Notes under the pieces: generated by a model | What the model was told of the DNA's origin: nothing | What the model saw: the letters and a program-made list of their open reading frames with translations, nothing else | Databases searched by the model: none | Shown here: in pieces, positions 515 to 60,949 of the stretch | Layout: each line of letters begins with the position of its first letter | Position numbering within the stretch: the stretch's first letter is position 1 | DNA from: Cyanobacteriota bacterium | GTDB lineage: Bacteria; Cyanobacteriota; Cyanobacteriia; PCC-6307; Cyanobiaceae | DNA: 64,000 nucleotides | Direction of reading: 5' to 3' | Assembly (NCBI GenBank): GCA_026389335.1 | Contig: JAPLIB010000091.1 | Span: 9,246-73,245, forward strand | Position numbers and translations under genes: made by a program

Positions 515-3500
515 ATGACCGTGACCGCCAGCAGCGGCAGCACCAGGGTCACCCCCCAGCGCTACGACACCCTGCCGCTCTCCAGCGTCCGTCAAGCGGA
601 GCAGCAGGATCGCTTCCCCGACGGCGGCGAACTCGACGCCCTGACCACCTTCTTCCAGAGTGGCCAGATCAGGGTGACAGTGGCCCAGCGCCTCTCGGCC
701 AATGCTGCTGCGATCGTCGCCAAAGCCGCCAACCGCATCTTTTCGGGCGGCACGCCGCTCTCCTATCTCGATGCCCCCCTCCCCGGCGACGCCGCTGGCG
801 AGGGTGCGCCCCTGGCAGCAGACCAGGCCGCCTTCCAGCGCTCAGTGCAGACCTTCGCCGGTGCCACCGCCAACCGCGGCAACCTGCTGAGCCGGCTGCT
901 TGAAGGCGCCGGCGGCGATGCCGATGTGCGCGTGATCCTGCCCACCGGCTTCGCTCCGATCAGCGTCGGCCGCTATGGCACCGAGCGGATGAAGAAGTCG
1001 ATCCGCGATCTGGCCTGGTTCCTGCGCTACGTCAGCTACGCCATCGTCGCCGGCGATCCCAGCATCCTGTCCGTCAACACCCGCGGCCTGCGGGACGTGC
1101 TGGAGAAGGCCTGTTCACTGGCGGCCACCAACGTCGCCCTGCAGGAGATGCGGGCGGTCGGTGCTGGCCTGTTCAAGGCGGAGCCGCAGGCGCGCAGCCT
1201 CGTGATCGAGTACTTCAACGTGCTGCTCAAGGAACTGGAGGTTCCTGTCCCCTCCAGCCGGGCACGGCTGGGCAGCCCTGTGAGCCAGGGCCTGCAACTG
1301 CCAGCCAGCTACGCGCAAGCCGCCGAAGGGGCCCAGCGCTTCGTGATGCGCCCCCGCCTCTCCGGCAGCCAGAAGGCCGAAGTGATCCGGGCTTGCTACC
1401 GCCAGGTGTTTGAGCGGGACATCACCAAGGCCTACTCCCAGGTGGTCTGCCCCGTTGAAGCCACCCAGGTGCGCCAGGGCCAGCTGTCGATGCGGGAATT
1501 CATTCGTGCCCTCGGGCGCAGCAAGGAATACCAGCGCCAGTTTTATGGCCGCTTCTCCAACAGCCGCGTCGTGGAGCTGGCCTTCCGCCACTTCCTCGGT
1601 AGGGGGGTGAGCTCGATCGAAGAGTTCCGCCAGTATTTCGCCATCGTCAGCAGCAAGGGTCTCGGCGGCCTGGTGGATGCCCTGGTCAATGGCATGGAAT
1701 ATGCCCGGGTCTTCGGCGAAGAAACCGTTCCTTATCTGCGGGATCTCGGTGAAGAGGCCCAGGAGAGTGCCGGCTGGGGATCGAACCGCAGGCTCTTCCG
1801 CTACAGCGCCCCGTTCGAAGGTGCCCCCCAGTACATCACCCTCTACGCCTCCTACCGGCAACCCTTCGCCGACCAGCATCCCTATGGCGGCGGCAACGAC
1901 CCGATCGGTCTCAACTACGGCGCCATCTTCCCCTCCGGCACCGCTTCGGTGGCCACGCGCCCGGCGCCGTTCAGTTACGACAGCCGCCGCATCCTGATCG
2001 GCAATGGCCTGCGCCAGCCTGGCCAGATGGACAGCGCCCAGTTCCGCAAGTCCACGCCACGGCGCGTCGGTCCCAAGGTGCTGCGTCTGCAGCAGATTGC
2101 CACCGGTGGCAGTTCCGTTCCCCGCCGCGGTGGCCAGCCCAGCATCCGCGGCACCGAAGCGGCCACCCAGGCGGTGATCCGTGGCGTCTATGTCCAGATC
2201 CTGGGCACCACCGGCTATGCCGGCGAACACAACACCGTTGAAGAGATCAAGCTCGAGAACGGCGACATCAGCCTGCGAGAGTTCATCCGCCAGGTGGCCC
2301 GCTCCAAGGCCTTCCGTCGTCGCTACTGGAGTGGCCTCTACATCTGCAAGGCGATTGAGGTGATGCATCGCCGCATACTGGGTCGCCCCAGCTTCGGTCG
2401 CTGGGAGATTGACAGCTACTTCGACACCGCAGCCCGCAGCGGCTTCTATGGCGTCGTCGACGCCATGATCAACAGCCGCGAATACAACGAAACCTTCGGC
2501 GAGGACACGGTTCCCTACGAGCGCTTCATCACCGCCAACGATCGCAACGCCCGCCAGGTGCCGGCCCTGCGCCGACCCTTCAATGCCGAGTCGGTGGCCG
2601 ATCTCACCCCGATCCAGCGGCCGGATGTGCCGCGGCCACTGCAGTTGCGCACCGTCGCCGACACCGTGCCGCGTAACCTGGCCGATCGCAATCGGTTGAT
2701 TCGCGGCAGCTGGACCGCCTCGATCAGTGGCGGTCAGAGCAATGCCCCAAGCCCCGACAGGTCGGCTGGCTCCCAGAGCATCAAACAGCCGCCGCTGCCC
2801 ACCCGCAGCTGGAGCGCGCCACGTTGGCAACCCGGGGTCGCCAAACCCCTGCCCTCCCGATCCACGGCACCGGCAGCCCCTGCGGCCCTTGCCCCAACAG
2901 CCTTGACGGGCCCAGGCAACTGGCGCGCGACCCAGGCCAGCGGCTATGGCTCCGCGATGGCAGTCCAGCCTGGTGCCGCCATGGTGAAAGCTCTGCAGCC
3001 GGGCTCCCCCCAGGGATTCCGCCGCCGCCAGAGCCTGGGACGTCCGATCCAGCTGCCCACCGCCCCTAGCGACAGCCAGCTGAGCGCGGCCATTGAGGGC
3101 AGTTATCGCCAACTCCTCAACCGCACCGTTCTGGCGGCGGAACGGCTCAGCGATGCCGAATCCCAGTTGCGCAACGGTGTGTTGACGGTCGCCGATTTTG
3201 TCGGCCAGATCGCTCTCAGCGACATGTTCCAGCAACGGATCCAGCTCATGGCCCCATTGCGGGGTGCCTCGGCGGTCTATCTCGCCCTGCTGGGTCGAGC
3301 CGCCCAGCCAGCTGAGGTGAGTCGCTTCCTGGCGACCCGCTCGAAGCAAGGTCAGAGGCAGGCGATTGCGGCCGTGCTCTCCGGTTCGGAGTATGCCGGC
3401 AGCTTCGGCCGCGACACCGTGCCCTATCTGAAGGGATTGAACACCGCTGATGGCCTGCCCTTGAGCACGGTCAATCGCACGGCCAATCTCTACGGAGGCA

Positions 3501-3538
3501 ATGCCGCCCTCAATCCTCCCCTGGGCGGAGCCATCTGA
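515..3538 (+). CDS. apcE: Phycobilisome core-membrane linker LCM
   Basis: Start MTVTASSGSTRV; phycobiliprotein domain with chromophore Cys (RGLRDVLEKACS); three REP linker domains (YRQVFERD, YVQILG, YRQLLNR, each ending in FGE/RxTVPY); directly upstream of apcABC. Confidence 0.97.
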   Translation: MTVTASSGSTRVTPQRYDTLPLSSVRQAEQQDRFPDGGELDALTTFFQSGQIRVTVAQRLSANAAAIVAKAANRIFSGGTPLSYLDAPLPGDAAGEGAPLAADQAAFQRSVQTFAGATANRGNLLSRLLEGAGGDADVRVILPTGFAPISVGRYGTERMKKSIRDLAWFLRYVSYAIVAGDPSILSVNTRGLRDVLEKACSLAATNVALQEMRAVGAGLFKAEPQARSLVIEYFNVLLKELEVPVPSSRARLGSPVSQGLQLPASYAQAAEGAQRFVMRPRLSGSQKAEVIRACYRQVFERDITKAYSQVVCPVEATQVRQGQLSMREFIRALGRSKEYQRQFYGRFSNSRVVELAFRHFLGRGVSSIEEFRQYFAIVSSKGLGGLVDALVNGMEYARVFGEETVPYLRDLGEEAQESAGWGSNRRLFRYSAPFEGAPQYITLYASYRQPFADQHPYGGGNDPIGLNYGAIFPSGTASVATRPAPFSYDSRRILIGNGLRQPGQMDSAQFRKSTPRRVGPKVLRLQQIATGGSSVPRRGGQPSIRGTEAATQAVIRGVYVQILGTTGYAGEHNTVEEIKLENGDISLREFIRQVARSKAFRRRYWSGLYICKAIEVMHRRILGRPSFGRWEIDSYFDTAARSGFYGVVDAMINSREYNETFGEDTVPYERFITANDRNARQVPALRRPFNAESVADLTPIQRPDVPRPLQLRTVADTVPRNLADRNRLIRGSWTASISGGQSNAPSPDRSAGSQSIKQPPLPTRSWSAPRWQPGVAKPLPSRSTAPAAPAALAPTALTGPGNWRATQASGYGSAMAVQPGAAMVKALQPGSPQGFRRRQSLGRPIQLPTAPSDSQLSAAIEGSYRQLLNRTVLAAERLSDAESQLRNGVLTVADFVGQIALSDMFQQRIQLMAPLRGASAVYLALLGRAAQPAEVSRFLATRSKQGQRQAIAAVLSGSEYAGSFGRDTVPYLKGLNTADGLPLSTVNRTANLYGGNAALNPPLGGAI

Positions 3539-3596
3539 GCGGCAGAGCCGAGGCCAGGCTGGGCCTTCTAATCGGAATAGCTAAACCAGTCACCCC

Positions 3597-3630
3597 AACC
3601 TCCCGGAGCCAGGCTCCGGGAGGTTGCTTT
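3597..3630 (+). terminator. Probable intrinsic terminator after apcE
   Basis: 13-bp stem AACCTCCCGGAGC / GCTCCGGGAGGTT, 3-nt loop, followed by GCTTT. Confidence 0.6.
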
Positions 3631-3944
3631 ATGAATAAGTAGTCTAATTTTATTCAGGGATTCATCACACAGATGGGCCCAAAATCGGCCTGCCTCAGTC
3701 TTCGCCCTCGGCCGCAAGAGATCAACAATTGCTGCAGCAAGCCGCTGTCAGCAACTGGCGCCAGCTGGTTTGCAGCCGCAGGGATCTCCAACGCAATTCG
3801 GCCGTGAAGATCTGTTACCGGTGCCCGAGCCCTAGAGGAGCGTTGCCGCAGAATGATTCGGCGGTCGACACTGTCGGCCTCAACCCTTACCCACTGGATA
3901 CCGGTCTCCTTCAACGGCGACCGCTTGTTTCGAGGCAGAACTGC

Positions 3945-4430
3945 ATGAGCATCGTCTCCAACTCGATCATCAACGCGGACGCCGAAGCCCGCTACCTCAG
4001 CCCTGGCGAACTCGACCAGATCAAGTCGTTCGTGGCTGGTGGTCAGCGTCGCCTCCGCGTCGCCCAGGTCCTGGCGGAAAGCCGGGAGCGCATTGTCAAG
4101 CAGGCCGGAGGCCAGCTTTTTCAGAAGCGCCCCGATGTCATCTCACCCGGAGGCAATGCCTACGGTGAGGAGATGACGGCAAGCTGCCTGCGGGACATGG
4201 ATTACTACCTGCGCCTGGTCACATACGGCGTTGTCGCTGGCGATGTGACGCCGATCGAAGAGATCGGCATCATTGGCGCCCGTGAGATGTACCGCGCCCT
4301 TGGCACTCCCCTGGAAGCGATGGCGGAAGCCGTGCGCGAAATGAAGTCGGTGGCCACCGGCATCCTCACCGGCGCCGATGCCGAGGAAGCTGGTTTCTAC
4401 TTCGACTACGTCGTCGGCGCCCTCTCCTGA
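3945..4430 (+). CDS. apcA: Allophycocyanin alpha subunit
   Basis: [29 protein letters not shown]...[17 protein letters not shown]; 161 aa. Confidence 0.98.
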
Positions 4431-54579: not shown

Positions 54580-55027
54580 TGCGTACTACCCCAGAAGCAC
54601 TGCTGCGACATGCACGCCTACAACCACGATGCGGTCGTGGTTGCGGTTGAAGGGGGCAGATAGCGCCTACGGCTCGACAAGCTCGCCGGACTGCGTCTAC
54701 ATCGCTTCGATGGCGGCAGGGCTGGAGCTGCCAATAACGATGCGGTCGGGCTTCTGGAAATCGGCCACTGCTGAGCACTCCTTGAGGAACTCGGGGTTCG
54801 ACACCACCTCAAACGGGATCTCCACGCCGCGGGCCTGCTGCTCGGTGCGGATCGCATCGGCCACCTTGTCGGCGGTGCCGACGGACACGGTGCTCCTGGT
54901 CACCACGATGCGCGGAGCGTCGATGCAGCGGCCAATGGAGCGGGCGACGGCCAGCACGACTTGGAGGTCGGCGTGGCCGTCTTCATCGGGCGGGGTGCCC
55001 ACGGCGACGCACAGGATCTCGGCGCAG
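54580..55027 (-). pseudogene. ugd: UDP-glucose 6-dehydrogenase fragment A
   Basis: [53 protein letters not shown]; stops and frameshift, both ends missing. Confidence 0.88.
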
Positions 55028-55066
55028 ATGCCCAACCATTCTGCTTGGCAGAACTATGTTGAAGGA

Positions 55067-55667: not shown

Positions 55668-55754
55668 TTGGGAGGCTCGAGATCGCTGATGGCGGTGCCT
55701 TCCGCGAGGAACTCAGGGGTGGGAGAGCTCCGAAAAGCTCTTGCGCCCAGAGGT
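55668..55754 (-). pseudogene. ugd: ugd fragment B
   Basis: TSGRKSFSELSH(+1)PEFLAEGTAISDLEPPNRV matches the SFxVLSNPEFLAEGTAIxDLExPDRV segment of Ugd. Confidence 0.75.
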
Positions 55755-56734: not shown

Positions 56735-57094
56735 TCAGGCTGGGCTAATTCCCAGGGCCTGTGCCAGGTCCGCCAGGCGACGGTCCTGCGTCCAGAGGGT
56801 GCAGTGGGTGAGTTTTGCTGAAGCAAGCAGCTGGGCATCAACAAAGCCGATGCCGCGCCCCATCAACTGGTGCTGCTCGATCAGCATCAGCACTTCCGCC
56901 GGGCTGGCCACGCGGGCAGCCGGCAGGCCCTGGAGGAGCTCGAGCACGCGGCTGCGATCGCGAAGGTTGCCGCAGGCGAGTTCACCGATCACCCAGGGAT
57001 GGATCAACACGGCACTCTCCTGGAGGGCTGCCGTGAGCTGCGGCACGCCGGAGCGCAGGTGATCCACCCAGATGGAGGTGTCCACAAGGATCAC
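56735..57094 (-). CDS. vapC: VapC PIN-domain toxin, apparently intact
   Basis: MILVDTSIWVDHL, IGELACG, GIGFVDAQLLASA, LWTQDRRL; acidic tetrad present. Confidence 0.92.
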   Translation of the reverse strand: MILVDTSIWVDHLRSGVPQLTAALQESAVLIHPWVIGELACGNLRDRSRVLELLQGLPAARVASPAEVLMLIEQHQLMGRGIGFVDAQLLASAKLTHCTLWTQDRRLADLAQALGISPA

Positions 57095-57285
57095 GCCGCG
57101 CTCCTGCGACGAGGGACCGGCTGCAGATCGGGCTGGCTGCCCGCGAGGGCAGCCAGGCGTCGGGCGCTCTCCCGCTCCACCAGGGCCTGCAGGGCTTGCT
57201 TGAGCAGACTTGTGCGCTCGAGAGGGCCACAGAGCTCCTGGGCCTGCGCGAGCAGCTGATCATCCAGGTTGACGGTGGTGCGCAT
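57091..57285 (-). CDS. vapB: VapB antitoxin (RHH type)
   Basis: MRTTVNLDDQLLAQAQEL...ALQALVERESARRLAALAGSQP; 4-nt overlap with vapC. Confidence 0.9.
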   Translation of the reverse strand: MRTTVNLDDQLLAQAQELCGPLERTSLLKQALQALVERESARRLAALAGSQPDLQPVPRRRSAA

Positions 57286-57385
57286 GGCCCTCACTCAAGC
57301 TAAAGCATCATTCTAGGCATCATCTGATGATGCATTGCCAACCAAGTCGACAGTTGTGCTCCAGCGGCGGGGCGCAGCTACCACC

Positions 57386-57498
57386 AGGAACTCGGGACTG
57401 GCAAGCACCGCAAAGCTCCTGCGGCCGGAGGACGTTTTGCCCTCGGCGGTTCGCACCGGCAGGGTGCTTTTCTCCACCACGATCGTGTGGCCCTGGGC
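57386..57498 (-). pseudogene. ugd: ugd fragment C
   Basis: AQGHTIVVEKSTLPVRTAE...SGRRSFAVLASPEFL; internal deletion, ends exactly at PEFL. Confidence 0.8.
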
Positions 57499-57690
57499 GC
57501 GGTAGTACTGGCTGTAGACGACGAGGTCCATAGGTCAGGGCCTCCTGAGCGAAAGCTCATCCACCGCCGCCATCAGTGCCAGGCGATCGCTGCGAGCAAG
57601 CGCCGGGCCCATCGCCCTCGAGACCACGCCTGCTTGACCAATACAATACGCATGCACTATTCTTGATCGCTGCGGTGCGGGATTCCTAGG

Positions 57691-58094: not shown

Positions 58095-59058
58095 TCATAG
58101 CCGCTCGCTCCCGCGGGCCGCAAAGTCCGCCACCGTGCTGGCCAGCCCCTCGGCTAGCCGGATCCGCGCCCGCCAGCCCAACGCCGCCAGCCGGCTCACG
58201 TCCAGCTGCTTCTTCGGGGTGCCATCGGGTTTGCTGGCATCCCAATGGATTTCGCCTCGGAAGCCTGTGGCCGCCGCCACCGCCTCCGCCAGCTCACGGA
58301 TCGTCAGATCCACGCCTGTGCCCACATTCAGAAACTGCAACTCCTCAGGGCCTGGTTGCCAGTGCTCAAAGGCATACACGCAGGCCTCGCCCAGATCATC
58401 CACATGCAGGAATTCCCGTAGCGGCGTGCCGCTGCCCCAGCAGGTGACGCTTGGGGCGTTCGCCTGAGCCGCCTCATGAAAGCGGCGGATCAACGCCGGC
58501 AGTACATGGCTGTTGGTGGGGTGGTAGTTATCCCCAGGCCCGTAGAGGTTCGTGGGCATCAGGCTGATCGCATCAAAGCCGTGCTGCTTCCGCAGTGCCG
58601 CACAGAGCTTGATGCCGGTGATCTTGGCGATCGCGTACCACTCATTGGTGGGCTCCAGCGCCCCCGTGAGCAGCGCTTCCTCGCGGATCGGCTGCTCGGC
58701 GAACTTCGGATAGATGCAGCTGCTCCCCAGAAACAGCAGGCGCCGCACTCCAAAGCGCCAGGCCGTTTCGATCACATGGGTCTGGATCTTGAGGTTCTCC
58801 AGCAGGAAATCAGCTGGGTAGCTGTTGTTGGCCTGGATGCCGCCCACCTTCGCCGCCGCCAGCACCACCACCGTGGGTCGCTGCTCGGCGAACCAGCGCT
58901 GCACGGCCGCCGGGTTGAGCAGATCCAGCTCCTGCCGGGTGGCGGTGAGCTGCTGGCTGTAGCCCGCGCGCTGCAGGGCCCGGCAGATGGCACTGCCCGC
59001 CATGCCCCGGTGGCCGGCCACGAAGAGGCGGTCGGCCGGGGTGATTCAGAGATGCCAT
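58095..59058 (-). CDS. fcl: GDP-L-fucose synthase with a +1 frameshift at codon 4-5
   Basis: [59 protein letters not shown]; ATG at 59058 is out of frame by one A (ATG GCA TCT CTG A ATC ACC). Confidence 0.92.
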
Positions 59059-59163
59059 CAGCCCTGACCTTCTACTTGGTCCAGAGGCGGACTAACATGC
59101 TGGAGGAACTGACGCCTGGATCCGCCCGTGACCGCTTCTCCCCAGCGCACGCTTGCCCAGCGA

Positions 59164-59406
59164 ATGGTGAACGTGCACGAGGCCAAGACCCACTTTTCGC
59201 GTCTGATCGACGCGGCCCATGCAGGGGAAACGATTGTGGTGGCCAAAGGTGGCAAGCCCTGGGCTCGTCTGGTGCCCCTGGAGCAGCGCGCCTCTCGACG
59301 CGTGCCAGGCGTGCTGGCGGGCCGGTTCACCCTGCCGTCACCGGCAGTGCTGCTGGAGGCCCTTCCGGAGGAGGAGCTCGCTGGCTTTGAGCAACCTCTC
59401 CTGTGA
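59164..59406 (+). CDS. Phd/YefM-family antitoxin
   Basis: MVNVHEAKTHFSRLIDAAHAGETIVVAKGGKPWARLVP. Confidence 0.92.
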   Translation: MVNVHEAKTHFSRLIDAAHAGETIVVAKGGKPWARLVPLEQRASRRVPGVLAGRFTLPSPAVLLEALPEEELAGFEQPLL

Positions 59407-59807
59407 CGACAACGGCTGCCTTGGAGCTGTTGCTCGATACCCACGCCCTGCTCTGGTGGCTGGCTGAGCCTGATCGCCTGTCTCCAGCGGCTCAGGCGGC
59501 CATTGCTGAACCTGCCAACGGAGTGCACGTGAGTGCTGCGTCTGGCTGGGAGATCGCCACCAAGGTGCGTCTTGGCAAGCTCCCAGCGGCCAGGGAATTG
59601 CTCGATGATCTGCCCGAGTTGCTTGCAGCCCAAGGGTTTCAGCTGTTGCCGATCACCCTGCAGCACGGCCTCCATGCCGGCAGCTACCCCATGCCCCACC
59701 GCGACCCCTTTGATCGTCTGCTGGCCGCCCAGGCTGAACTGGCCATGCTCACCCTGGTGACCGTGGATCCAGCGCTTCAGGCGTTCCCCTGCCAGCTTCT
59801 CTGGTAG
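59403..59807 (+). CDS. vapC: VapC PIN-domain toxin, apparently intact
   Basis: LLLDTHALLW, SAASGWEIATK, HRDPFDRLLAAQA, VTVDP; 4-nt overlap with the antitoxin. Confidence 0.92.
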   Translation: MTTTAALELLLDTHALLWWLAEPDRLSPAAQAAIAEPANGVHVSAASGWEIATKVRLGKLPAARELLDDLPELLAAQGFQLLPITLQHGLHAGSYPMPHRDPFDRLLAAQAELAMLTLVTVDPALQAFPCQLLW

Positions 59808-59812
59808 CGCCA

Positions 59813-60949
59813 TCAACCCTGGCCTCCTGCTGCCGCAACGGCCGAAGGGTTGGTGGGCGGGTTTTCCATTGAGCCCACCACGTTGAAGCCCTTGAGCCGC
59901 AGGATCGCCTCCTTGCGTGCTTCCTCGCGATCGGTCGCCACCATCTCGGCCACCAGCTGCTCAAGGGTGGTGGTGGGCGTCCAGCCCAGTTTCTCGCGAG
60001 CCTTGGTGGGATCCCCCAGCAGGGTTTCCACCTCCGCCGGGCGGAAGTACCGCGGGTCGATCCGCACCACCACCTCGCCGCTGCTGCGCCGGCCGGTTTC
60101 CTGCACGCCTGTGCCCTCCCATTGCAGGGCCCCCCAGTCCAGTTCCGCGGCCGCCAGCTCAATGAAGCGCCGCACCGATTCCTGCCGCCCTGTGGCGATC
60201 ACGAAATCCTCGGGTGGGCCCTCCTGCTGCAGCATCCGCCATTGCATCTCCACGTAATCCCTGGCGTGGCCCCAATCGCGCCGTGAATCGAGATTGCCCA
60301 TGTAGAGACAATCCCCTAGTCCTTCCTGGATGCGTGCCAGGCCGCGGGTGATCTTGCGCGTGACAAAGGTTTCACCGCGCCTCGGGCTTTCATGGTTAAA
60401 CAGAATTCCGTTGCAGGCATACATGCCATAGGCCTCGCGGTAGTTCACCGTGATCCAGTAGGCATAAAGTTTGGCTACGCCATAGGGGCTGCGTGGATAA
60501 AAGGGCGTGGTTTCCTTCTGGGGGGTTTCCTGCACCAGGCCGTATAGCTCCGAGGTGGAGGCTTGATAGATGCGGGTTTTGTGGGTGAGCCCTAGCAGCC
60601 GCACTGCCTCCAGGATGCGAAGGGTGCCCAGAGCATCACTGTTGGCCGTGTACTCCGGCGCCTCAAAGCTCACCGCCACATGGCTCTGAGCCCCGAGATT
60701 ATAGATTTCATCGGGCTGCACCTGCTCAATGATGCGAATTAGATTGGTGCTATCTGTAAGATCGCCATAGTGGAGCGTCAGCCGCGGATTGCTCTCATGG
60801 GGATCCTGGTAGAGATGGTCAATTCGCGTGGTGTTGAAACTGCTGGCGCGGCGCTTGATGCCATGCACCTGATAACCCTTGTCCAGCAACAGCTCCGCCA
60901 GATAGCTGCCGTCTTGCCCTGTGATACCGGTGATCAGGGCAACAGGCAT
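59813..60949 (-). CDS. gmd: GDP-mannose 4,6-dehydratase
   Basis: [58 protein letters not shown]. Confidence 0.98.

Follow-up and report, generated by a model that had tools for sequence, protein, structure and literature searches.

We analysed a 64,000-nucleotide stretch of a Cyanobacteriota genome (assembly GCA_026389335.1, contig JAPLIB010000091.1), hereafter referred to as the window, in which a phd-vapC toxin-antitoxin (TA) pair lies antisense between gmd and fcl (59164-59807, + strand; Table 1). The gmd gene is the accessory second copy of its genome and its tail belongs to the PPTNP-tail clade, while the other gmd-fcl pair of the same genome (contig C146) is empty, carrying no TA pair. 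The vapC and gmd genes are convergent, their stop codons lying 5 nt apart. As an earlier note on this DNA had described, the TA pair sits at the gmd/fcl junction and is bracketed by a duplicated copy of that junction; the 732 bp between the two copies contain only phd and vapC, and the transposase, integrase and terminal inverted repeats that the note had reported missing are indeed absent from the insert and its ends. Two ugd fragments nearby share a 24-nt, 75% repeat at a PEFL-coding motif.

Table 1. Genes and sequence features at the gmd-fcl junction (positions refer to the window)
Feature	Position	Strand	Details
gmd (GDP-mannose 4,6-dehydratase)	59813..60949	-	378 aa, intact; PF16363 510 bits, full profile
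fcl (GDP-L-fucose synthase)	58095-59058, including ancestral ATG	-	PF01370 212.6 bits
fcl body	58095..59045	-	316 codons; first in-frame ATG/GTG/TTG is GTG 59021
vapC, PIN-domain toxin	59403..59807	+	134 aa; PF01850 51.5 bits
phd/yefM-type antitoxin	59164..59406	+	80 aa; PF02604 38.0 bits, TIGR01552 27.9 bits
phd leader	59141..59163	+	contains 15-nt repeat unit CCCAGCGCACGCYTG
Palindrome TTGGTCC-N6-GGACTAA	59076..59095	+	probable Phd/VapC operator
Repeat copy 1 (gmd side)	59809..59831	-	last five gmd codons, TGA, AGGAGG, bridge ATG
Repeat copy 2 (fcl side)	59054..59076	-	gmd-tail relic, weakened Shine-Dalgarno, bridge TGA, fcl ATG
Antisense bridge ORF	59058..59813	-	251 codons; from ATG over gmd stop to TGA over ancestral fcl ATG
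Extra A in fcl start region	59045..59046	-	from alignment to L001

The module itself is ordinary for the type II Phd/YefM-VapC (PIN) modules, with which it shares the antitoxin-first order, the 4-nt overlap of the two genes, the domains, the acidic residues and the upstream palindrome, whereas its position and the open antisense frame are unusual. The Phd antitoxin domain scored above the curated thresholds of both profiles (29.8 bits for PF02604 and 20.8 bits for TIGR01552; the PF01850 cut-off for the toxin is 23.6 bits). In VapC, E50, D101 and D104 are invariant in 59/59 homologues, D122 is retained in 54/59, and D12 is present (LLLDTHALLWW). The 4-nt overlap of phd with vapC recurs in most sister cassettes, and an operator-like palindrome lies upstream of phd in 18 of the 29 scanned cyanobacterial sister cassettes. 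Cassettes in different contexts are homologous up to the vapC stop, beginning at the palindrome or at the phd start, and in each context compared the cassette starts with the palindrome. The conservation of this motif (TTRGTCC-N6-GGACTAA) upstream of phd speaks for autoregulation, and TTGGTCCAGAGGCGGACTAA may be the target of the Phd-VapC complex. Natural variants carry none, one, two or four extra 15-nt leader units, and bridge lengths of 251, 256 and 266 codons occur among them. A consensus scan of 58950-59900 revealed neither a sigma-70-type promoter nor an intrinsic terminator.

The repeat search identified the two junction copies as a direct repeat that is 19/23 identical at a spacing of 755 nt. 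On the minus strand, gmd ends in GGA GGC CAG GGT TGA TGG C, and repeat copy 1 comprises its last five codons (A G G Q G), the stop (TGA, 59815-59813), the AGGAGG motif and an ATG (59813-59811) that opens the bridge frame. The second version, GAA GGT CAG GGC TGA TGG C, lies upstream of fcl as a V E G Q G * relic, in which the TGA closing the bridge (59060-59058) overlaps the ancestral fcl ATG (59058-59056). The mismatches between the window copies fall mostly at third codon positions. The Shine-Dalgarno motif of copy 2 reads AGAAGG here and AGGAGG in relatives, where it lies 9 nt 5' of the ATG (L001, L122, L286, L297 and L302). Moreover, the fcl-side copies in L122, L302 and L305 read GCAGGAGGTCAGGGTTGATGGCG and match the gmd-side copy of the window at 22/23 positions. 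The repeat is bounded by the palindrome on one side and by the vapC stop on the other.

The earlier note had left room for the 23-nt match being no better than chance, that is, a fortuitous resemblance of two stop/start overlaps. The region is rich in GC-rich repeats of similar length and identity, among which this repeat merely takes its place when no condition is imposed; conditioned on the shared TGATGG, the chance of such a match is 2.4e-4 to 7.4e-4. Specifically, the 16 nt upstream of the gmd stop are matched at 12/16 or better at only one of 4,102 other genomic TGATGG sites, which is the fcl-side copy itself, and a fraction of 7.4e-4 of 144,453 pairs of junction-like TGATGG sites reaches 12/16. 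Together with the near-perfect copies in relatives, this count rules out a chance repeat for practical purposes. Since the duplicated stretch holds the gmd stop as well as the Shine-Dalgarno motif and ATG of fcl, both genes keep their signals, as the earlier note had proposed for the coupling signals on either side; the overlaps are further kept through the open antisense frame. Both genes are whole after the insertion only if this stretch is present twice, and the duplication therefore persists. The repeat is best read as a scar retained for its usefulness rather than as a recombination anchor.

Near the fcl start, the window carries one extra base (CTGAATCACC, compared with CTGATCACC in relatives), which shifts the ancestral ATG into a different frame from the fcl body; in the frame of the body, a TGA occurs at 59048-59046. 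The ATG that the earlier note called the real fcl start is the ancestral one, intact in L001, L122 and L286, but it no longer serves the reading frame of the body here. The frameshift in this genome is real, and it is polymorphic: seven independent metagenome contigs are frameshifted and three are in frame, all with a 100%-identical VapC. Other carriers also show decay, including gmd deletions in L001 and a degraded fcl in L131. The decay of the neighbours in several carriers (the fcl frameshift, the weak Shine-Dalgarno motif, L001 and L131) speaks against strong selection on coupling acting everywhere.

We found the same insert with the same flanks in more than 20 assemblies belonging to five diverged lineages (L001, L122/L185, L305-307, L302, L297-301, L286 and L131, together with 12 population contigs). 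L001 shares 82% nucleotide identity with the window over 2.28 kb, divergence of the insert reaches about 25%, and a tree of the cassettes groups the junction alleles in a supported clade, next to which L131 is placed. These comparisons indicate that the insert is old and vertically stable. Given that the same insert and flanks recur across lineages, and that the fcl-side copy is nearly perfect in some of them, one old insertion with junction duplication is indicated. In most relatives gmd and fcl are adjacent and TA-free, as they are at no fewer than 25 loci of the genus (at least 25), and the two genes form ATGA overlaps in the empty alleles. The usual adjacency assumed in the earlier note therefore holds and the insertion is a true one; the opposite outcome, in which all relatives would share this TA pair with the same flanks, was not what we observed.

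By contrast, the empty allele with a single GQG*/ATG junction that the earlier note had predicted did not appear: no GGQG*/ATGGCG junction of this kind was found in 125 genus genomes, the species-representative and metagenome collections or the population contigs. A search of genome_contigs with TGATGGCNNNNCTGATYACCCC returned only filled alleles and unrelated matches, a search of metagenome_contigs with GGNCARGGNTGATGGCNNNNCTGATYACC returned one further filled allele (L286), and exact VapC and gmd look-ups in assemblies returned filled alleles only. Likewise, no excised form was found in the 125 genus genomes, two public collections or more than 20 population contigs. The nearest approach to an empty allele is L119, which has the same TGATGGC junction followed by a different gene. 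As no single-junction empty allele was found, the duplication of the target is something that we infer from the filled alleles and not from a before/after pair.

The junction is a hotspot for TA pairs. L124 carries a different Phd-PIN pair and L125 a HepT-MntA pair at the same position, both without a junction duplication, so that the earlier expectation of different TA pairs between duplicated junctions held for the pairs and failed for the duplication. In both genomes, the end of the gene upstream of fcl and the fcl ATG share an ATGA, and L125 additionally has the gmd TGA overlapping the hepT ATG. Judged from these alleles, stop/start coupling is the common denominator of the three TA families at the junction. 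We further compared the flanks of 21 cassettes with defined ends, and self-pair flanks scored no higher than non-self flanks except in the junction alleles and in L080, an unrelated actinobacterial locus; flanking repeats were accordingly rejected as a property of the cassette family. Among the same 21 cassettes, with the same exceptions, no flanking repeat rises above the non-self background, in contrast to the core repeat at every insertion site expected of a site-specific integrative element. GGYCAGGGYTGATGG is the sequence on which a recombinase would act in a site-specific reading, and the insert encodes no recombinase. For an IS element, transposon or MITE, we found neither bracketing inverted repeats nor a transposase in the insert, and the repeat is 23 nt long and inexact. 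No integron attC follows the cargo, for which there is no room because the vapC stop lies only 5 nt from the gmd stop.

Copies of the cassette at other loci retain traces of the junction. In L005, 14 of 15 nt are shared past the vapC stop (reached by 0 of 2,000 shuffles), and in L303 and L304 about 30 nt are shared (reached by 8 and 18 of 2,000 shuffles, respectively). L303 and L304 are placed inside the junction clade of the cassette tree, retain gmd-tail sequence beside vapC and probably carry a remnant of the second repeat beside the operator. The upstream flank of L303 was considered as a relic of the fcl 5' end and rejected as not significant (177 of 2,000 shuffles reach its score), and that of L005 is marginal (14 of 2,000). 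Relocated copies with gmd scars point to illegitimate recombination rather than to repeat-driven mobility, and the pattern in L303 and L304 fits the transfer of an arbitrary fragment rather than excision via the repeats.

The residues that the earlier note had taken for a vestigial MAL at the end of gmd open a frame of 251 codons, which ends at the TGA that overlaps the fcl ATG. This antisense bridge frame, 246-266 codons long, is open in every junction allele in which both repeat copies were seen; its course from the ATG of copy 1 exactly to the TGA of copy 2 is in frame in the window, L001 and L286, and in L302 and L305-307 it is open as far as the copy 2 TGA. It is also open in L131 and in 15 of 15 population contigs. 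Of 84 sister cassettes elsewhere, only 6 (about 7%) have this frame open, as do 2 of the 29 from the cyanobacterial clade. The junction lineages have accumulated about 0.74 substitutions per site without a single antisense stop, whereas the non-junction sisters of the same clade, at about 1.09 substitutions per site, show 11 distinct stop positions, all arising from the vapC codons TTA, CTA and TCA. At the sister rate, 7-9 stops would be predicted in the junction lineages, compared with the zero observed. On this evidence, stop codons appear to be kept out of the antisense strand of the insert. We also considered in-frame leader indels as a sign of selection on the frame and rejected them: all length variation consists of the 15-nt tandem unit, and in-frame length variants are therefore not independent evidence.

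How this frame is to be explained divides our judgement. It might be a compositional by-product, in which case the duplication alone would matter and fcl would use its own Shine-Dalgarno motif; we regard this as a serious candidate that falls somewhat short of an even chance. The probability of an open frame is 0.24-0.31 per sequence under synonymous-codon resampling and 0.32 for vapC under genome codon usage, the part of the frame that does not encode the TA pair is open in 29-46% of shuffles, and the junction alleles share descent. Such a reading is also consistent with the origin of the sister stops in just three rare vapC codons, with the frame still being open in the relocated L303 and L304 copies, and with an AGGAGG in copy 2 that could drive fcl initiation by itself. 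It accounts less well for the contrast between the diverged junction lineages, with no stops, and five of five same-clade non-junction sisters with 2-4 stops each at equal G+C (0.62-0.68), for a frame that stays open and in register across three unrelated leader sequences, and for a start and a stop that coincide exactly with the repeat copies. A bolder proposal, which we hold to be possible rather than probable, is that the antisense strand is a translated relay cistron under selection, that gmd, bridge and fcl are serially coupled, and that stop/start overlaps are preferred landing sites for recombinase-free TA pairs; within this relay proposal the preference would reflect the survival of only those insertions by which the overlap is duplicated or restored. 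Both repeat copies have the TGATG form, as in translational coupling by overlapping stop and start codons (TGATG, ATGA), but here, unlike in ordinary overlap coupling, the middle cistron would be the antisense strand of a TA operon. To our knowledge, no case of such a coupled middle cistron has been described, and our literature searches retrieved neither TA pairs at gmd-fcl nor relay ORFs through TA cassettes.

Taken together, we favor a history with one old entry of phd-vapC, a junction duplication of about 23 nt, a putative relay frame and later shuffling, to which we assign a probability of roughly 0.6. A self-contained and presumably self-regulated cassette, consisting of the operator palindrome, the leader and two overlapping genes and nothing more, would have entered the TGATG overlap of the accessory gmd-fcl operon once, long ago, antisense to the operon and within a surface-glycan island of a Cyanobium-like picocyanobacterium. 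The entry would have duplicated about 23 nt of the junction, whose ancestral form may have been roughly GCAGGAGGYCAGGGYTGATGGCG, such that copy 1 ends gmd and opens the antisense frame and copy 2 closes this frame on the fcl ATG. Terminating and reinitiating twice, ribosomes could then travel from gmd across the bridge into fcl, a passage that seems possible because the bridge is stop-free across diverged junction alleles. Later, inheritance of the block would have been accompanied by reshuffling through homologous recombination within its flanking genes, and illegitimate recombination would have placed copies of pieces of it, gmd scars included, at other loci.

The main competitor is a recombination between versions of the glycan cluster, homologous within gmd and with an illegitimate joint 23 nt upstream of the recipient gmd stop, whereby a donor with gmd and a convergent cassette met a recipient gmd-fcl and two gmd ends remained, the donor's and the recipient's. 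L131 shows such an event in this locus family, keeping the gmd-side boundary while a 42-nt relic of an L124-type PIN gene replaces the repeat on the fcl side (alignment score reached by 0 of 3,000 shuffles). The variation by genome of the gmd tails and of everything past TGATGG points to a recombination breakpoint, and mosaic identities relative to L185 (phd 91% but fcl 78%) and the preponderance of third-position mismatches in the window copies would also follow. We nevertheless consider this origin unlikely, if well worth keeping in view. Only 2 nt separate the cassette from TGATGGCG, and since a downstream gene begins with ATGGCG, the donor arrangement itself would already call for a previous insertion immediately behind a gene junction. 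In addition, the two copies converge across genomes on a single, nearly identical ancestral sequence (22/23), as would be expected of a duplication more than of two alleles, and the limits of the cassette coincide exactly with the vapC stop and the palindrome. Homology-facilitated illegitimate recombination is reportedly a feature of transformable bacteria, other than the organisms studied here. Its gmd anchor and illegitimate joint would explain L131 and could explain two gmd ends, but alone it leaves the exact cassette boundaries unexplained.

The earlier note had instead favored an enzyme-less mobile cassette that used the junction as its recombination anchor, which would imply a circle with one junction copy, a Campbell-type crossover at the junction and excision between the repeats. 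Its premises of insertion and duplication stand, the direct repeat being real and placed exactly at the insert ends, and both the hotspot with three TA families and the junction sequence beside the vapC stop in L005 and L303/L304, as a one-copy circle would leave it, agree with such mobility. The anchor and the excision fared worse, and we regard this mode of movement as improbable. Flanking repeats are no general property of the cassette family, the other TA pairs at the junction lack a duplicated copy of it, and no empty or excised form turned up in the genomes, collections and contigs searched. Moreover, both repeat copies appear to have left remnants in the relocated L303/L304 copies, whose upstream flank shows no significant resemblance to fcl. 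Repeats of 23 nt at 65-83% identity are at or below the length needed for RecA-type recombination; being so short and diverged, the present repeat is a poor substrate for homologous excision, and the insert is old and vertically stable.

The nearest known parallel to the favored single entry comes from restriction-modification gene complexes, which are said to insert with long target duplications. Enzyme-less restriction-modification insertions flanked by long target duplications, defined by a 30-bp threshold, were described by Furuta, Abe and Kobayashi (2010; PMC2853133), including a Haemophilus influenzae example with a 46-bp repeat overlapping the 3' end of a gene. Our locus shares with these systems an addiction-type pair, the lack of a mobility gene, the 3' end of a gene as target and direct target duplication, with end repeats that agree at 19/23 positions in the window and 22/23 across genomes. 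It differs in that the cargo is a TA rather than a restriction-modification pair, the repeat of 23 nt is below 30 bp, no insert-free relative with a single copy to which both repeats align was found in the genomes and contigs searched, the target is a stop/start overlap within an operon, and an antisense frame links the copies. Belot et al. (2026; PMC13617665) reported chromosomal TA "spots" between conserved genes, in which linkage is short-lasting, and for such pairs the route of entry into genomes in the absence of mobility genes is an open question. TA pairs also occur in genomic islands of subcluster 5.2 Synechococcus (PMC5498466). In common with these, the gmd-fcl junction has different TA families in one small interval, no mobile-element genes and eroding neighbours. 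Unlike in the spots, however, the interval is here of zero length, a 1-nt stop/start overlap within an operon, each of the three TA families retains a stop/start overlap with fcl, and the TA pair persists over about 25% nucleotide divergence rather than being short-lasting.

The locus thus represents a dated, multi-lineage case of TA entry into a zero-length interval between translationally coupled genes. It offers a survival rule, namely that the overlap with its stop, Shine-Dalgarno motif and start must be duplicated or re-created, and it makes a claim open to testing, according to which the insert's reverse strand was kept open as a relay reading frame. If true, the relay would be a novel means by which a selfish cassette can reside in an operon without breaking it, and it would place a novel kind of constraint on synonymous positions in a toxin gene. 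The glycan operon would then be transcribed and translated across the TA pair in antisense, which would couple the toxin-antitoxin balance to the expression of surface-sugar genes. With three TA families at one junction, the gmd-fcl interval is a natural setting in which the turnover of TA pairs within picocyanobacterial surface-glycan islands can be studied.

Comparison with homologous loci from other assemblies and contigs (L numbers) showed that the toxin-antitoxin (TA) cassette between the fucose-sugar genes gmd and fcl, an antisense phd-vapC pair with a 23-nt direct repeat at its ends, recurs with the same boundaries in several relatives. The acidic residues of the PIN nuclease are retained in VapC, with E50, D101 and D104 invariant across 59 homologues.

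Features of the gmd-fcl locus in the window
Feature	Position	Strand	Description
gmd	59813-60949	minus	378 aa; PF16363, 510 bits; 3' end ...GCA GGA GGC CAG GGT TGA
Copy 1 of junction	59809-59831		gmd-side repeat
vapC	59403-59807	plus	PIN domain, PF01850, 51.5 bits; ends 5 bases beyond the gmd stop
phd	59164-59406	plus	PF02604 and TIGR01552; precedes vapC, 4-nt overlap
phd leader			68 nt, 5' of phd
Palindrome	59076-59095		TTGGTCCAGAGGCGGACTAA; 5' of the phd leader
Copy 2 of junction	59054-59076		minus-strand reading GTA GAA GGT CAG GGC TGA TGG CA; abuts the palindrome
Bridge frame	ATG 59813-59811 (copy 1) to TGA 59060-59058 (copy 2)	minus	251 codons
fcl body	58095-59045	minus	PF01370, 212.6 bits; after copy 2

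A repeat search of the window found copies 1 and 2 identical at 19 of 23 positions, a match that by itself is unexceptional for DNA this GC-rich. Because TGATGG is common to both copies for functional reasons, significance was tested on the 16 nt upstream of it. Among 4,102 other genomic TGATGG sites, only the fcl-side copy matches the gmd upstream sequence at 12 or more of these 16 positions, and 7.4e-4 of pairs among 538 junction-like sites attain 12/16. The fcl-side copy of L122/L185, L302 and L305 (GCAGGAGGTCAGGGTTGATGGCG) agrees with the gmd-side copy of the window at 22 of 23 positions, and fcl-side copies are still recognisable in L286 and L001. These copies in relatives settle the repeat as real; the earlier note's duplicated gmd-stop/fcl-start junction around the TA pair is confirmed, and the match is better than chance.

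Across 125 species-level genomes of the genus, gmd and fcl are usually adjacent without a TA pair, the gap ranging from an overlap (ATGA) to 164 nt, which supports the proposal that the pair was inserted at their junction. The window's genome has a second gmd-fcl pair on another contig (C146:6610-8744), with ~32 nt between the genes, no TA, and ~87% and ~69% amino acid identity to the window's gmd and fcl, respectively; thus, the window's pair is accessory and lies in a glycan island. Cassettes with the window's boundaries were found in L001 (Synechococcus sp. MAG; 82% nucleotide identity over 2.28 kb), L122/L185, L305-307, L302, L297-301, L286 and L131, as well as in 12 metagenome contigs that match the window exactly in VapC or gmd. 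Junction carriers form a supported clade in the cassette tree, with L131 in a polytomy beside it and divergence of up to about 25%. The empty alleles with a single GQG*/ATG junction that the earlier note proposed to look for did not appear, as none of our searches found a single GGQG*/ATGGCG junction. The closest approach within the clade of gmd genes with a PPTNP tail is L119:2186-4201, in which such a gmd is followed by the identical TGATGGC overlap, opening an unknown 185-aa ORF, and then by a low-G+C glycosyltransferase-like gene.

Other TA pairs also occupy this junction, namely a Phd-type antitoxin with a different PIN toxin in sense orientation (L124, genus genome G073) and a HepT-like protein (HI0074 family, PF08780) with an MntA-like nucleotidyltransferase (L125, genus genome G098). 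In both, the end of the last cassette gene overlaps the fcl ATG (ATGA), and in L125 the hepT ATG overlaps the gmd TGA. The prediction of different TA pairs between duplicated junctions therefore stood for the pairs and failed for the duplication, which is absent around either of them. L131 has the antisense phd-vapC with the usual gmd-side boundary and, beside fcl, the 42-nt remnant of a PIN gene like that of L124 (alignment score reached by 0 of 3,000 shuffles), so cassettes have replaced one another at this site. These results support the gmd-fcl junction as a TA hotspot.

Sequence of the gmd tail directly follows the vapC stop at three non-junction loci. L005 has 14 of 15 nt in common with it (reached by 0 of 2,000 shuffles) and adjoins a hicA gene whose frame now crosses the scar. 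This HicA-like toxin gene (L005:964-1224, PF07927) is without its own end and continues via the 15-nt scar into the vapC antisense strand. L303 and L304, located between an AAA_14/DUF4143 gene and DUF4351/DUF2887 genes, have ~30 nt in common with the tail (reached by 8 and 18 of 2,000 shuffles) and are nested within the junction clade. Given the scars and this nesting, the junction was the source from which arbitrary fragments were copied elsewhere. The earlier note's view of the junction as an anchor for recombination, from which the pair could excise by crossing over between the repeats, is not supported: L303 and L304 seem to retain, next to the palindrome, a diverged piece resembling copy 2, and since that piece would be absent from a circle formed by repeat recombination and no empty sites were found, an excision or integration role of the repeats is argued against. 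Sister cassettes in unrelated contexts are homologous from the palindrome or the phd start to the vapC stop; in this comparison, direct repeats at the flanks are no general trait of the family. A distant phd-vapC cassette of the actinobacterium Luteipulveratus flavus (L080) lies between 18/20 direct repeats, CCGGCTGAGGCGGACGGCCT and CCGGCTGAGTCGGACCGCCT. The motif TTRGTCC-N6-GGACTAA, kept 5' of phd across the cyanobacterial clade, is likely the operator of the cassette. A tandem unit of 15 nt, CCCAGCGCACGCYTG, sits immediately 5' of the phd start (window 59141-59163; L288, L296-L300). Natural variants of the same cassette have zero, one, two or four additional copies of it, which alters the leader length and the called phd start.

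Among described processes, the closest is insertion with long target duplication, documented for restriction-modification genes, which proceeds without a mobility gene and leaves variable duplications, often at gene ends (PMC2853133). As the 23-nt repeat is below the 30-bp criterion of that study and the before-state is missing, we regard the locus as working like this process rather than as an established case of it. Previous work describes TA "spots" between conserved genes (PMC13617665) and island-borne TA pairs of subcluster 5.2 picocyanobacteria (PMC5498466); our literature search found no description of a zero-length TA spot within an operon, a duplicated stop/SD/start overlap around a TA pair, or an open antisense frame joining repeat copies.

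The bridge frame spans the whole antisense cassette and its leader, and its closing TGA overlaps the ancestral fcl ATG. In L001 and L286 (246 codons) this frame is both open and in register; it is also open in L131 and in 15 of 15 population contigs (251, 256 or 266 codons in the 14 with the stop inside the contig), open as far as the copy 2 TGA in L302 and L305-307, and still open in the relocated L303 and L304. The in-frame length variants, all due to the 15-nt unit, were given no weight as evidence for the frame. Of 84 sister cassettes at other loci, which average 2.7 stops, only 6 have the equivalent frame open; for the cyanobacterial clade the count is 2 of 29. The nearest non-junction sisters (L002-L006) have 2-4 antisense stops each, all being vapC TTA, CTA or TCA codons. 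On the tree, non-junction sisters show 11 distinct stop positions over ~1.09 substitutions per site and junction lineages 0 over ~0.74; the non-junction rate predicts 7-9 in the latter, the Poisson probability being about 1e-3 or lower for lineages that share descent. For a single sequence, the probability of an open frame is 0.24-0.32 under codon-usage nulls, and that of the leader part 0.29-0.46. We give selection on the open frame about even odds or slightly better. The vapC gene has no TTA, CTA or TCA codons; gmd and fcl together have 9, with about 4.3 expected from the genome average.

The duplicated stretch holds the last codons and stop of gmd, the fcl ATG itself and, 9 nt ahead of it, an AGGAGG. 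Because the gmd-end and fcl-start signals overlap, an insertion sparing expression of both genes requires two copies of the stretch. In copy 2, L001, L122, L286, L297 and L302 have an intact AGGAGG, which has decayed to AGAAGG or AGAATG in the window's population. The best reading is a single old enzyme-less insertion that would have duplicated the junction, the duplication presumably being kept since it preserved the signals of both genes, with a frame relaying ribosomes from gmd to fcl across the insert probable.

In the window, one extra A (59045-59046, fcl codon 5) places the fcl ATG out of frame with the fcl body. This insertion is polymorphic among independent metagenome contigs with identical VapC (L287-L296; seven frameshifted, three in frame), and is thus a real polymorphism rather than an assembly error. 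Further fcl breaks occur in some metagenome contigs, fcl is degraded in L131, and the accessory fcl appears to be becoming a pseudogene. The L001 gmd (3393-4073) matches residues 1-19, 85-124 and 196-378 only, which indicates internal deletions or misassembly. A ugd-like gene (UDP-glucose dehydrogenase, PEFL motif) is present in several fragments (window 54697-55035, 55699-55722 and 57313-57531), with other TA pairs lying among them, VapBC at 56735-57294 for one; the only repeat found there, a direct repeat of 24 nt with 75% identity at the PEFL-coding motif, may be a recombination scar of the gmd-fcl kind. At the gmd-fcl junction, the TA pair outlives its neighbours, as expected for an addictive module beside a redundant gene pair (compare PMC13617665).
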